DNA of 64,000 bases from IMG/VR virus record IMGVR_UViG_3300046534_001361, positions 12,280 to 76,279 of that record. One strand, written 5' to 3'. A model generated the notes under the pieces. That model ran no database searches. It saw only the letters and a list, made by a program, of their open reading frames with translations, and was not told where the DNA came from. Shown here piece after piece: positions 10,838 through 43,517 of the stretch. The first letter of the stretch is position 1. Every line of letters starts with the position of its first letter. The translations under genes were made by a program, and so were the position numbers. This DNA is from a virus.

Positions 10838-11104
10838 ATGAGTAAAATTAACATGGCAATAACGTGTGGTATTTCCACATCTGTATTTTTGGCTTTGGTC
10901 ATTTCCGTTGGTCTCATCACTAATTGGGATTGGCAGATAATTAGTAATTTATCCGTTTTGATTCCCATATTATCATTACTGTTTTTTTCACTGTACCTTA
11001 TTATAGCCACGGCAACACTTAAAATAGCTACATTAATATTAAGAACATACCGTCATCGGCAAGTGTCAACCACCAAAAACAAAACAGAGCGAGATCGAAA
11101 ATGA
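10838..11104 (+). CDS. Two-TM membrane protein
   Basis: Two hydrophobic stretches and a basic tail. Confidence 0.55.
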   Translation: MSKINMAITCGISTSVFLALVISVGLITNWDWQIISNLSVLIPILSLLFFSLYLIIATATLKIATLILRTYRHRQVSTTKNKTERDRK

Positions 11105-11682
11105 CAGCAGCAACAATTACAAAGCAAAAATTATTAAACCTTGGCGCACACCAGGGCTTAATCAGCCGGTTTATCGAACAAACAGGCAACACCGATCAGC
11201 CAGTTGATATCCTAAGTTTAATCGGCGCAGAGAACGCCACGGATGATCTTTTATGGTTAGCAGGGCAAACCCTCCCGAAAATCAAGATTGTACAGTTTGC
11301 CGTGGAATGTGCTGAAAGTGTGTTGCATCTCAACAGTGATCCCAGAGCTATTGCTGCGATCCAATCGGCAAAGGACTGGTTAGAGGAACCATCCGAAGAA
11401 AATAGGCTGTTAGCTCGTGAGGCTTTTACTTATGCTAATAATGCTACTTATGATACTGATGCTGCCCGTGCTGCATATTATGCGGCTAATGCTGCTGCGG
11501 CTGATAATGCTTATGCTGCTATTAATACTGCTTATGCTGCTGCGGCTGCTGCGTGTGCTGTAGAGGCTAATGATGCCGCTAATTATGCTAATGCTGCTGC
11601 TATTTATGCTAATGCTTATGCTGATTATGCGGAATCAAATGAAGTGGTTCAAACCTCACTCATGAATCTATTTTCAGAATAA
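11101..11682 (+). CDS. Family A copy 1: Imm5-like helical protein with Ala/Tyr/Asn-rich variable tract
   Basis: Shared core ITKQxLxxLGA...FAVECAESV.HL..DP.A.AAIQ.A.DW...E.NRL.AR, then a low-complexity tract, then SNEVVQxSLxxLFSE. Confidence 0.85.
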   Translation: MTAATITKQKLLNLGAHQGLISRFIEQTGNTDQPVDILSLIGAENATDDLLWLAGQTLPKIKIVQFAVECAESVLHLNSDPRAIAAIQSAKDWLEEPSEENRLLAREAFTYANNATYDTDAARAAYYAANAAAADNAYAAINTAYAAAAAACAVEANDAANYANAAAIYANAYADYAESNEVVQTSLMNLFSE

Positions 11683-11762
11683 ACCGATCAACCACAAGCC
11701 CCTTAATTGGGGCTTTTTGGGTAGTAATGCACTAATCAAAAACACAAAAAGGTAAAGTCATA

Positions 11763-12314
11763 ATGGAACAAATTAACTACAAAAACCGGACAGAGCAAGT
11801 CCGAGATCTCATAGCCAACGCCGACATAAACACCGAAAAATACGCGGTAGATATATTAAACCCGGGCAGAAAGAACGCGAGCTTTGTGGGCTATTACGTC
11901 AGCCCAGACGGCATGAAAACTCTAATGATACGTGTACCTCTAAACACAGATGGTGTAGCTTGCAATATTAAGCGCTGGCTAGGGGTTTTCGGCAAGACCA
12001 AAACACCGTGTGCAGCGCCAAATCCAGAGCAAGCGCCGGCAGATGTTGGCATGGGGAAAATAATAGCCCCGATCAATACTGAATCACTAGTGCCAGCTGA
12101 TAACAAATCACGAGGGGCGTTGAAGCGTGATCAGACGTTAGATAAACAACCAGTTGCTTGGATATTGCTAGAGCAACATTGCAGGGCGGTAGATGATTGT
12201 GAAGACGTGCCGGTGCTTTGCTTCGCTAGCGAGATTAGCGAGACAGAACTTAATAAATACATTGAATCTGGCCGGGCTACGCCGCTTTACACCAAGCATG
12301 GAGCAGCATCATGA
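11763..12314 (+). CDS. Hypothetical protein
   Basis: 183 aa; PVAW...TPLY C-terminal motif seen in phage Ead/Eaa-like proteins. Confidence 0.6.
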   Translation: MEQINYKNRTEQVRDLIANADINTEKYAVDILNPGRKNASFVGYYVSPDGMKTLMIRVPLNTDGVACNIKRWLGVFGKTKTPCAAPNPEQAPADVGMGKIIAPINTESLVPADNKSRGALKRDQTLDKQPVAWILLEQHCRAVDDCEDVPVLCFASEISETELNKYIESGRATPLYTKHGAAS

Positions 12315-12544
12315 GTTTACCAGAAGCGTTAAATACTGATAGTGACAATGCTGCACTGATTGATCAGGTTAAAGGGTTTTTGAGGGACTGGGTGCTAGAT
12401 GATTTTGACGCCGACAAATGCCTTGCCATGATCCGGACTGGCATTGCCAGTGAAGCTTACGGCCGCCAAATAGCACTAATGGCTACGCTCTTGTTTGAGA
12501 TTGGTGTTGTGCGAGATAGTTTTAAAGAGGCGCTAGACCAGTGA
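12311..12544 (+). CDS. Hypothetical protein
   Basis: ATGA-coupled ORF. Confidence 0.55.
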   Translation: MSLPEALNTDSDNAALIDQVKGFLRDWVLDDFDADKCLAMIRTGIASEAYGRQIALMATLLFEIGVVRDSFKEALDQ

Positions 12545-12735
12545 GCAGCAATCAAAAATACCTACATCTTATCGGTGATAGTCACAACGACGACGCCCCG
12601 CTTGGCGTTGATGCCGATGGCTGGGGCAGTATGAGCCAGGAGCAGCGCAAAGAATTAGTCAGTGAAGTTGCCCGTAATATTTACGATGAACACGATTTAA
12701 CACTGTTTAAAGTGATCCAAGACAGTGAAGACTAA
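12541..12735 (+). CDS. Hypothetical protein
   Basis: GTGA-coupled ORF with GAGG RBS. Confidence 0.55.
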   Translation: MSSNQKYLHLIGDSHNDDAPLGVDADGWGSMSQEQRKELVSEVARNIYDEHDLTLFKVIQDSED

Positions 12736-12855
12736 GCGCTTGTTTTTAAATACACTACGCCAATTATCGCAAATTACATTTGATTGGTGTATTTACATTA
12801 ATAAAATGTAGGTCTATAATTGAATCTACTTAAATACATCAACAGGTCTGTTTAT

Positions 12856-41856: not shown

Positions 41857-42081
41857 AATTCACCTGATTATTTTTAATAATTGAAGTGCTAATGCTATCA
41901 TATTATGTGCAAATAGTAAACCTATTATGTTTAATCAGTTTAATTGCGCTGGTCGGTATTGTTATCATCAAACGAGTTGACAATAGTATGAATGGCAATA
42001 ACGGCAACCGCAATCAACAGTAAAGCAGCTAAAGTTCTCATGGCGCACCGCAAGGGTTCAATATTTTCATTATGGATGACA

Positions 42082-42145
42082 CCTCTGTTTAATTTAGTTT
42101 GCCCGGGGATTAAATAGCCGGGCTTGTGGTCGATCGGTTTTGCTA
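42082..42145 (-). repeat. Cassette element, stem-loop half
   Basis: AACCGATCGACCACAAGCCCGGCTATTTAATCCCCGGGCAAACTAAATTAAAC. Confidence 0.8.
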
Positions 42146-42667
42146 TGAAAATAACTTAGTTAGTGAAGCCTGCACCACTTCATCAGATTCAGCATCATAA
42201 GCAGCACTAGCAGCAGCACTAGCAGCAGCACTAGCAGCAGCATAGGCAGCATAGGCAGCACTAGCAGCAGCATAAGCAGGCTGGGAAGCGGAATAAGCCG
42301 CAGCATTTGAAGTAGCATAAGCAGCATAAGCAGCATCACGGGCGTTCAATCGATTCTCCTCTGATGGTTCCTTTATCCAATCCTTAGCCGCTTGGATCGC
42401 AGCATTAAAACTGGGATCACTGTTGAGATCAACCAAACTTTCAGCACATTCCACGGCAAACTGCACTATCCTGTGCTTTGGCAGGGTTTTACCGGCTAAC
42501 CATAAAATATCAGCCGTGGTATTTTCCCCACCGATCAAACTAAAAATCTCAACAGGTTGATCAGTGTCATTGGTGGCTGCGATAAACCGGTTGATTAAGC
42601 CCTGGTCTGCGCCAAGATCTACTAGTTGTTTTTTCGTAATTGTTGGTGCTGGTATTGGTGCTTTCAT
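42143..42667 (-). CDS. Family A copy 5
   Basis: Same core and tract. Confidence 0.85.
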   Translation of the reverse strand: MKAPIPAPTITKKQLVDLGADQGLINRFIAATNDTDQPVEIFSLIGGENTTADILWLAGKTLPKHRIVQFAVECAESLVDLNSDPSFNAAIQAAKDWIKEPSEENRLNARDAAYAAYATSNAAAYSASQPAYAAASAAYAAYAAASAAASAAASAAYDAESDEVVQASLTKLFS

Positions 42668-42820
42668 TTTCGATCTCGCTCTATTTTAGTGGTGGGTTGT
42701 GGCGTCTTGCCGATGAATTGATATTAACACATTCAAAGCAGACTGAAGATTTTAAATCTAATTAGTTTAAATTAAGTTTACCCGGCTATTAGATGGCCGG
42801 GATCGTGGTTGCTCCGTTTA
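42668..42820 (-). repeat. Cassette element, full copy
   Basis: Stem-loop CCCGGC-CATCTAATA-GCCGGG, degenerate -35, TGTGT-TAATAT; leader identical to the one at 43415-43478. Confidence 0.9.
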
Positions 42821-43414
42821 TTCTGAAAACATCTTCATGAGTGAAGCTTGAACCACTTCATTTGATTCCGCATAAGCAGCAGTATAAGCAGCAGCATAAG
42901 CATCATCAGCATAGATAGCAGCATCATTAGCATTAGCATGAGCAGCAGCATAAGCAGCAGCATAAGCAGCATAAACAGCAGAAACAGCAGCATCAGCAGC
43001 ACAATAAGCAGGAGAAGCTACATAAGCAGCAGAAGCAGCATAAGCAGCAGCATCATAAGCAGCATCACAGACTTTCAATCTATTCACCTCGGATGGTTCC
43101 GATATCCAATCCTTAGCCGATTGGATCGCAGCATTAGCTCTGGGATCGGTGTGTAGATGCGACACACTTTCAGCGCATTCAACGGCGAACTGCACTATCC
43201 TGTGCTTTGGCAGGGTTTTACCGGCCAACCACAGAAAATCAGCCGTGGTATTTTTGCCACCGATCAAACTAAAAATCTCAACGGGTTGATCGGTGTTGCC
43301 GGTTTGTGCGATAAATCGATCAAAACCCGGCTTACACGCACCGAGATCTACTAATTGTTTTTTCGTAATTGTTGGTGCTGGTGCTGGTGCTGGTATTGGT
43401 ATTGGTGCTTTCAT
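42818..43414 (-). CDS. Family A copy 6
   Basis: Same core; N-terminal IP/AP 6-bp repeat expansion. Confidence 0.85.
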   Translation of the reverse strand: MKAPIPIPAPAPAPTITKKQLVDLGACKPGFDRFIAQTGNTDQPVEIFSLIGGKNTTADFLWLAGKTLPKHRIVQFAVECAESVSHLHTDPRANAAIQSAKDWISEPSEVNRLKVCDAAYDAAAYAASAAYVASPAYCAADAAVSAVYAAYAAAYAAAHANANDAAIYADDAYAAAYTAAYAESNEVVQASLMKMFSE

Positions 43415-43517
43415 TTTCGATCTCGCTCTATTTTAGTGGTGGGTTGTGGCGTCTTGCCGATGAATTGATATTAACACACTGGCGGCAGGGTGCAACTTTT
43501 AAATCAAATAAGTTTAA
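43415..43517 (-). promoter_or_regulatory. Cassette element, promoter/leader half
   Basis: TTGCAC-N16-TAATAT immediately after the dnaB stop. Confidence 0.85.

Follow-up and report, generated by a model that had tools for sequence, protein, structure and literature searches.

The stretch of DNA analysed here, hereafter the window, comprises 64,000 nucleotides (nt) of IMG/VR virus record IMGVR_UViG_3300046534_001361 (contig C1, positions 12280-76279, within a 233-contig, 3.5-Mb assembly) and carries six paralogous genes, designated c1 to c6, which are dispersed over four loci. Each gene encodes a conserved core, an alanine-rich tract that differs between copies, and a conserved C-terminal cap, and the end of a seventh copy persists as a remnant. 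The genes and the remnant, with the bit scores of the genes against the Pfam family DUF6931, are as follows.

11101-11682, plus strand: c1, open reading frame (ORF) of 193 amino acids (aa); tract 11410-11634; DUF6931 44.9 bits
13990-14463, plus strand: c2, ORF of 157 aa, the shortest; tract 14290-14415; DUF6931 52.4 bits, Imm5_like 19.6 bits
14609-15271, plus strand: c3, ORF of 220 aa, the longest; tract 14918-15223; DUF6931 24.5 bits
33854-34462, minus strand: c4, 202 aa; tract 33899-34153; stands alone and has a promoter, a box and a stem-loop of its own; DUF6931 36.7 bits
42143-42667, minus strand: c5, 174 aa; tract 42188-42346; in tandem behind c6; DUF6931 40.3 bits
42818-43414, minus strand: c6, 198 aa; tract 42866-43075; directly downstream of dnaB; DUF6931 26.6 bits
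21559-21588, minus strand: what remains of a seventh copy, namely ~30 nt from the end of the C-terminal cap; aligned with the six 3' ends

For c2, the ATG at 13990 agrees better with the homologues than does the GTG at 13933. The core extends over 98 aa, from an ITK motif to the RL that follows DW, and is free of gaps in all six copies; over a slightly longer MAFFT alignment, from the start codon to the same RL, the copies share 71-84% nucleotide identity. At the protein level, identity to copy 1 is 61-68%, with 60 invariant columns, and every copy terminates in the cap S-N-E-V-V-x-x-S-L-x-x-x-F-S. Between core and cap lie tracts of 75, 42, 102, 85, 53 and 70 aa in c1 to c6, respectively (the c3 value being provisional), whose pooled residues (n=427) are dominated by Ala (226), followed by Tyr (56), Asn (42), Asp (22), Ser (22) and Thr (13). 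A second in-frame repeat, a hexanucleotide present 6.2 times and encoding Pro-Ala/Pro-Ile, occupies the N-terminus of c6 (43373-43409); it is shorter in c5 and absent from c1-c4.

The codons identify the tract as a decayed (GCT)n, i.e. CTG.CAG-type, triplet repeat. All six tracts contain arrays detected by TRF, with periods of 9, 12, 21 or 60; the array of c3 (14929-15126) is a 60-bp unit repeated 3.2 times with 91% matches. The commonest tract codons are GCT, TAT, AAT, GAT, GCG, ACT, GCC and TCT, and synonymous choice is strongly skewed relative to a background of 18 large genes of the phage: GCT supplies 84% of Ala codons in the tracts vs 30% in the background, TAT 95% vs 55% of Tyr codons and ACT 100% vs 27% of Thr codons, while Asp is encoded by GAT throughout. 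Thymine fills the third position of 362 of 427 tract codons (85%) vs 173 of 629 core codons (27%; Fisher p 1e-79), and 76% of tract codons conform to DMT ([G/A/T][A/C]T), one or two steps from GCT. Because translational selection would not favour TAT, AAT or GAT, this pattern points to repeated regeneration of the tract from GCT units. A (GCT)n repeat is equivalent to (CTG)n, a sequence prone to slippage, and slippage is the process that we infer to lie behind the tract. The substitutions are not scattered along it: non-Ala residues recur at lags of 3, 4 and 7 positions (111, 110 and 99 pairs vs 60-86 elsewhere) and thus would line one face of a helix.

Relatives in cultured phages show how far such tracts can differ. 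In phages 9NA, Solent and Sergei, the first 270 nt of the gene are 100% identical and the tracts span 97, 78 and 44 codons, all of the form NNT (GCT, GAT, TAT, CGT); in PDP46 and 536P12, cores that are 95% identical accompany tracts of 65 vs 89 codons. The 9NA genome was Sanger-sequenced with 660-bp reads (PMC4153490), so that its 291-nt tract is spanned by single reads. Hypervariability of the tract therefore holds at the level of the family, as 9NA, Solent and Sergei show, and the tract is the fastest-changing sequence seen between these sibling phages. A diversity-generating retroelement was considered as a source of variation and rejected, since no RVT_1 match was found on C1 and the tract composition is dominated by GCT as opposed to random NNT.

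Synonymous divergence (dS) in the core ranges from 0.45 to 1.55 and dN/dS from 0.11 to 0.41, values that mark the copies as old paralogues under purifying selection. A PHI-type statistic of 0.336 compares with 0.458+-0.016 over 2000 permutations, none of which reached the observed value (p<1/2000), and the informative core sites form blocks of incompatible groupings: c2 with c6 at 74-95, c5 with c6 at 106-128 and again at 209-221, c3 with c5 at 113-116, and c2, c3 and c6 together at 261-266. On this evidence the cores are recombinant mosaics. The analysis thus bears out much of a preliminary description of this DNA, which had reported six intact genes with a shared core, a variable tract and a cap, had proposed that this constant-variable-constant layout was diversified by repeat slippage, and had suggested recombination among the copies: the alignment returns the six genes at the same positions, the TRF arrays, GCT bias and third-position T speak for slippage, and the permutation test reveals the mosaic cores.

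The copies are accompanied by recurrent intergenic modules whose elements follow a fixed order: stop codon, 21-nt box, GC stem-loop, AT-rich tract, TTGCA, 17 nt, TGnTAATAT, leader, ribosome-binding site and ATG. Downstream of each of the six genes lies the 3' box, AAACSGANNRACCACRANCCC, which occurs 8 times in the window vs a chance expectation of 0.00 and is single-stranded in RNA folds. C1 holds 8 boxes, 6 stem-loops, 7 promoters and 4 leaders in total. The seven promoter copies (0-0.8 expected) match the sigma-70 consensus, carry an extended -10 and lie behind AT-rich sequence; the genes are presumably expressed from them, and they are the evidence that bears on the putative early, high-dosage expression proposed in the preliminary description. 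The stems comprise 6-7 GC-rich base pairs at six sites (-11.8 to -17.2 kcal/mol). Promoter plus leader precede c3, c4, c5 and c6, and c1 retains only the ribosome-binding part. Among the other 232 contigs of the assembly, box, promoter and leader are absent, and the short stem-loop motif matches 87 times; Rfam returned no match for the box or the stem-loop. The individual modules are listed below.

14463-14608, plus strand: c2-c3 junction module; box 14463-14483, stem-loop 14481-14501, AT-rich/-35 region 14512-14536, extended -10 14549-14559, leader 14565-14585; RNA fold -17.2 kcal/mol, z -4.35
42682-42819, minus strand: c6-c5 junction module; box 42799-42819, stem-loop 42781-42801, promoter 42721-42768, leader 42695-42715
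43429-43515, minus strand: c6 promoter and leader; AT-rich/-35 region 43491-43515, extended -10 43468-43478, leader 43442-43462
34477-34563, minus strand: c4 promoter and leader
33814-33852, minus strand: c4 box and stem-loop
42102-42140, minus strand: c5 box and stem-loop
11681-11718, plus strand: c1 box, with a different stem-loop (11697-11714) that has a T run and the canonical shape of an intrinsic terminator
15270-15290, plus strand: c3 box, without a stem-loop
20121-20217, minus strand: module behind an unrelated 104-aa gene (20217-20531); box 20197-20217, promoter 20121-20168; precedes a 60-aa ORF
21462-21558, minus strand: module behind the seventh-copy remnant; box 21538-21558, followed by stem-loop and promoter (21462-21509); precedes an unrelated 145-aa gene (20966-21403)
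50303-50350, plus strand: AT-rich/-35/extended -10 promoter before an unrelated gene

Directly behind c3, where the usual stem-loop is missing, Rfam reports a full-length match to sraL (RF01408, an Hfq-binding small RNA) at 15361-15496 on the plus strand, with 58 bits vs a gathering threshold of 39. The preliminary description had presented the shared sequences as a frame for the family, with the box ending all six genes and the promoter and leader preceding four. Box, promoter and leader are indeed present as described, but because the module is shared with unrelated genes it is not a frame dedicated to this family; the leader is its sole family-specific element. Promoter-early stem-loop elements (PeSLs) consist of a stop codon, an AT-rich region, a sigma-70 promoter, a stem-loop, a Shine-Dalgarno sequence and a start codon, and mediate the shuffling of cargo genes (PMC2839356). 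The module agrees with this description and is a PeSL-like combination of stop-box, stem-loop and sigma-70 promoter, general rather than specific to the family.

With respect to family membership, all six proteins match Pfam DUF6931 (PF22011; 24.5-52.4 bits, E 1e-5 to 8e-14); c1, c2, c4 and c5 pass its gathering cut-off of 27 bits, and c6 and c3 lie just under it. Matches to Imm5_like (PF21805) are sub-threshold, the best being that of c2 at 19.6 bits vs a cut-off of 25, and three of the six copies gave no hit. The resemblance to Imm5-like proteins noted at the outset is therefore real, although DUF6931 is the better Pfam match, and the link to Imm5_like holds only at the level of the superfamily. 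The proteins also match PHROG 21347 (E 2e-30), a group of unknown function. An exhaustive phmmer search recovered 492 clusters (50% identity) at E<=1e-3; viral sequences make up 83-100% of the nearest Atlas clusters, some of which are labelled Imm5_like, and PF21805 is present in 38% of the members of these Atlas neighbours. Collectively, these matches place the family as a mostly viral branch of the DUF6931/Imm5_like superfamily, corresponding to PHROG 21347.

The three-part layout of core, tract and cap extends to more distant homologues and to cultured phages, among them 9NA (gp10) and the Shewanella sea-ice phages 1/4 and 1/40, and is thus a property of the whole family. Compared for copy number and position, the cultured-phage relatives carry one copy each, and in the 9NA group this copy occupies a fixed locus near TerL: in 9NA itself it is directly adjacent and divergent, while in Solent, Sergei and PDP46 it stands one small gene or a short gap from TerL, with no conserved partner. 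Multiple copies occur on two other contigs. A 1.7-kb metagenome contig (L017, Ga0070746_10077495, 1-1685) encodes three tandem paralogues whose cores are 92-94% identical and whose NNT tracts differ, with 2 nt between copies 2 and 3, and a further contig (L018) has two copies of the family. A canonical form of DUF6931, with 160 bits and no Ala repeat, is present in 2 of 41 other genomes of the host genus, where it lies between VgrG and PAAR and next to uvrB (L001, 1390-1959; L002, 1471-2043). This context suggests an accessory role, as adaptor or immunity protein, in a type VI secretion system (T6SS) for the canonical protein; the phage copies do not have the VgrG/PAAR context. A literature search returned no paper on the alanine-repeat tract of 9NA-like phages and a single paper mentioning DUF6931. 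Megablast of 11000-15400 against phage records gave zero matches, no close relative suited to a comparison of the locus was found among the viral contigs (scanned with c6) or the genome contigs (scanned with the alignment), and a metagenome scan yielded only seven short loci.

The replicon itself measures 76,279 bp, and because its termini share a 57-bp direct overlap, C1 is closed, either circular or circularly permuted. Its G+C content is 40.4% vs 40.2% over the whole assembly. The source run, an ice metagenome of 2024, is the sole public run that holds the stretch. Structural genes on C1 encode a major head protein, a portal, a head-morphogenesis protein and a small terminase; genes for replication and recombination encode an O-like initiator, a DnaC-like loader, DnaB, NinG, an MT-A70 methylase, RecT and a RecE-like exonuclease. 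This gene set is lambdoid in style, and no tyrosine integrase was found on C1. At 13115-13367 a second contig in the source run differs at 21 of 253 nt (depth 7.5 vs 10 for the main form), so that a related phage strain evidently coexists in the sample. Other features of the replicon are as follows.

55123-56843, plus strand: RecT-like annealing protein and RecE-like exonuclease (PHROG 148, E 5.5e-45; PHROG 149, E 5.7e-39)
21978-25358, minus strand: cluster encoding a ParB-N-like protein, a DUF3440/PAPS-reductase-like protein and a SNF2-type helicase, which may form a DNA-modification or anti-restriction module
53495-53570, minus strand: phage-borne tRNA-Met (CAT)
46064-46146: perfect tandem repeat of 22 bp x 3.8 within the O-like initiator gene (45640-46428), probably origin iterons
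35276-36783 and 58697-59398: three proteins built of repeated ~50-aa helix-turn-helix modules
59054-59342: DNA repeat of 156 bp x 1.9, within a region of these helix-turn-helix-module proteins

AlphaFold2 models were made for c1 and c3. Both are all-helical: in c1 (pLDDT 86.9, pTM 0.83) the tract and cap are modelled as helices 99-127, 131-152, 156-171 and 177-192, and in c3 (pLDDT 85.8) as one long antiparallel hairpin, 99-157/160-219. Foldseek retrieved nothing from the PDB at E<=1e-3, and its matches in a viral library were other phage Imm5-like proteins; a profile search of the PDB gave only low-complexity Ala matches. In an exhaustive structural search the best match was 7jtu_B (Z 10.8, root-mean-square deviation 3.3, 144 aa aligned), which extends over the full length. 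Chain B of 7JTU is the immunity protein SsdAI; all-helical itself, it covers the catalytic site of SsdA, a DYW-like T6SS deaminase toxin acting on single-stranded DNA (PMC7901873). Imm5 has been predicted to provide immunity against DYW deaminases and CdiA-CT toxins and occurs in polyimmunity loci (PMC3482391). The modelled similarity to the SsdAI fold and the Imm5 literature form a coherent, if short of conclusive, picture. As no transmembrane or secretion domain was detected in the six proteins, they are probably cytoplasmic.

We consider the following account, taken as a whole, moderately probable. These genes are old, selected, recombining paralogues, most of them carried in cassettes, and their products most likely act as one-to-one binders or blockers. 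Each protein would consist of a core of ~100 aa, an alanine-zipper helical hairpin or bundle of copy-specific length, and a final helix that folds back against the core. Slippage or unequal exchange would alter the length of the tract in frame, changes at codon positions 1-2 would convert Ala to Tyr, Asn, Asp, Ser or Thr on one helix face, and gene conversion would allow the copies to swap segments of their cores. Most copies occupy self-contained, moron-like cassettes of promoter, leader, gene, 3' box and stem-loop; a unit of promoter, gene and stem-loop fits the classical definition of a moron. The junctions between cassettes would probably provide homology for their dispersal, replacement and deletion, with the phage RecT/RecE proteins as likely agents of exchange between repeated modules and between copies. 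Each protein may then bind and block one host or competitor protein in a one-to-one manner, as immunity proteins of polymorphic toxin systems do, so that the six copies would constitute a phage-borne "polyimmunity" set directed against different variants of a target. This last component, a stoichiometric inhibitor of a host or competitor protein in six specificities, we advance only tentatively. Overall, the data suggest, without proving it, that the copies form a rapidly evolving set of proteins that bind those of the host or of competitors.

Several results weigh against this interpretation. The topology of the tract differs between the c1 and c3 models, with tract pLDDT values of 62-85. The Z score of 10.8 falls below the level of ~13 at which matches between helical bundles become specific, and DUF416 structures score 9.9 and 9.8, effectively tied with 7jtu_B, all others being at or below 6.9; at the level of sequence, no link to SsdAI was found (10% identity, no profile hit). 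No toxin domain was found in 10 neighbouring ORFs, 8 of which had no Pfam hit of any kind, and PF14424 deaminase toxins were not found in 42 genomes (41 of the genus plus the assembly), with control genomes equally silent. The VgrG/PAAR position of the host-genus DUF6931 proteins would suit a T6SS adaptor no less than an immunity protein, the PHROG 21347 family is uncharacterised, with the members in 9NA-type and Shewanella phages annotated as hypothetical, and the six stem-loops have no U tract. PADLOC returned no matches.

Among the alternatives, one holds that the tract is a tolerated low-complexity spacer drifting by slippage and that the six copies are simple duplications via the repeated modules, with no repertoire at all. 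The codon monotony and TRF arrays do reveal mutation-driven turnover, intact ORFs prove little where a three-base unit cannot break the frame, and tract length does not differ between the Shewanella phages 1/4 and 1/40. Nevertheless, the tract is kept in every member examined, across distant phages; the helix-face periodicity of the non-Ala residues is preserved and a conserved last helix always caps the tract; and the six cores, with dS reaching 1.5 between them, show purifying selection, so that the copies have long been maintained. We regard neutral drift as unlikely on balance. Of similar standing, and likewise on the unlikely side, is a stronger version of the binder proposal, a phage "contingency binder" in which the helical hairpin would serve as a paratope limited to Ala, Tyr, Asp, Asn, Ser and Thr, residues that DMT codons within two steps of GCT can all supply, and would be continually remade by CTG.CAG-type triplet slippage and exchange between paralogues. 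Such proteins would be self-renewing inhibitors that keep pace with variable host defence effectors or with toxins entering the cell, and no enzyme devoted to diversification would be required. A similar set of residues suffices for synthetic antibodies built on a four-amino-acid code.

A less probable alternative, which we would call improbable, is that the copies neutralise a toxin encoded by the phage itself, as part of a toxin-antitoxin or superinfection exclusion system. Imm5-type proteins are normally paired with a toxin (PMC3482391), and many small neighbouring ORFs have no known function. However, the neighbours contain no recognisable toxin domain and differ at all four loci, and the single-copy relatives at the fixed TerL locus have no conserved partner.

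It is also very improbable that the copies are artefacts, fewer genes having been collapsed or joined into chimeras during short-read assembly. The genome was assembled from a metagenome, and independent Logan contigs of the source DNA run, which served as the assembly check, break at repeats. They leave the 60-bp x 3.2 array of c3 unbridged, which renders its tract length provisional, and one 228-nt Logan contig joins 14928 to 15073, omitting 144 nt of the c3 tract; this joint may stem from collapse of the repeat or from an allele with a shorter tract. Yet the cores are 16-29% apart in DNA, far too different to be confused, every copy has unique flanks, and Logan contigs bridge c1 (11232-13367) and c2 (14019-14575), tracts included, with 0 differences. 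C1 moreover closes on itself via the 57-bp overlap, and doubt is limited to the length of the c3 tract. A second joint, from 14592 to 11081, was judged to be cross-mapping, the leaders of c4-c6 having the same ribosome-binding site as c1.

Finally, ice binding or cold protection by the Ala-rich helices, for which one might cite the ice metagenome as source, the relatives with Asn-rich tracts in Baltic sea-ice Shewanella phages, the T-A-A-N-A-A-A motifs repeated in c3 and the likeness of Ala-rich helices bearing Thr, Asn and Asp at regular intervals to type I antifreeze proteins, is scarcely credible given that the same family and tract occur in enteric Salmonella and E. coli phages, that the N-terminal core is Imm5-like and that the Thr spacing is 8 and 12, not the 11 typical of antifreeze proteins.

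If selected, recombining binders are indeed what these genes encode, their significance extends beyond a single phage. The family is large (the 492 clusters noted above), mostly viral and unstudied; phage counter-defence is being studied intensively, and no function is known for the majority of small phage genes of the early or accessory kind. Should the proteins prove to be inhibitors, the tract would represent a cheap, enzyme-free means of generating binder diversity, for which 9NA gp10 in Salmonella LT2 offers a tractable model. The window adds that the family can grow to six copies that are under selection and recombine, and that PeSL-type cassettes, so far known from T4-like phages, appear to shuffle cargo in a lambdoid-like marine/ice phage.

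Comparisons with known systems place these features in context. Contingency loci are simple-sequence repeats inside bacterial genes at which slippage yields variants at a high rate. The genes described here have in common with them a slippage-prone repeat within the coding region, the length of which varies in this family between near-identical phages; however, the unit of 3 nt means that length and protein surface change, in place of on/off switching. The closest counterparts are 9NA gp10 (AIB07013.1), Solent gp17, Sergei gp17 and the genes of Shewanella phages 1/4 and 1/40, which share the core, the NNT-coded Ala/Tyr/Asp tract and an LLxKLF-type cap. In these phages a single copy occupies a fixed locus by TerL and has Arg in the tract, whereas the phage analysed here has six diverged copies and a remnant at four loci, in promoter/stem-loop cassettes and with Asn, Ser and Thr in place of Arg. 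The canonical DUF6931 proteins of the host genus share the helix-hairpin motif (...FA...A...W...P.E..R) and the best Pfam model, but are chromosomal, associated with VgrG-PAAR, free of the Ala repeat, and score 160 bits vs 25-52 here. SsdAI of Pseudomonas syringae, considered here together with Imm5 and Imm5_like (PF14423, PF21805), is likewise all-helical and ~190 aa long and gives the best full-length structural match; it shares 10% identity, and no toxin domain was recognised beside the phage copies. Polyimmunity loci (PMC3482391) similarly contain several paralogous immunity-type genes with no toxin gene alongside; here the genes are phage-borne and partly dispersed, and any immunity role is putative. 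The PeSLs of T4-type phages (PMC2839356, PMC4122927) share the order of elements, the occurrence of repeats between small accessory genes and the replacement of cargo. In this case, the carrier is lambdoid-like (O/DnaC/DnaB, NinG, RecET) as opposed to a T4-type myovirus, an additional conserved 21-nt box separates the stop codon from the stem-loop, the U tract is missing, and the elements are predicted from their sequence. The claim of the preliminary description that no system with this architecture had been described was consequently overstated: 9NA gp10 has the same layout, the 1.7-kb metagenome contig has three tandem copies, and PeSLs are published. The multi-copy expansion in PeSL-like cassettes is a variant on a known protein layout and a known type of cassette.

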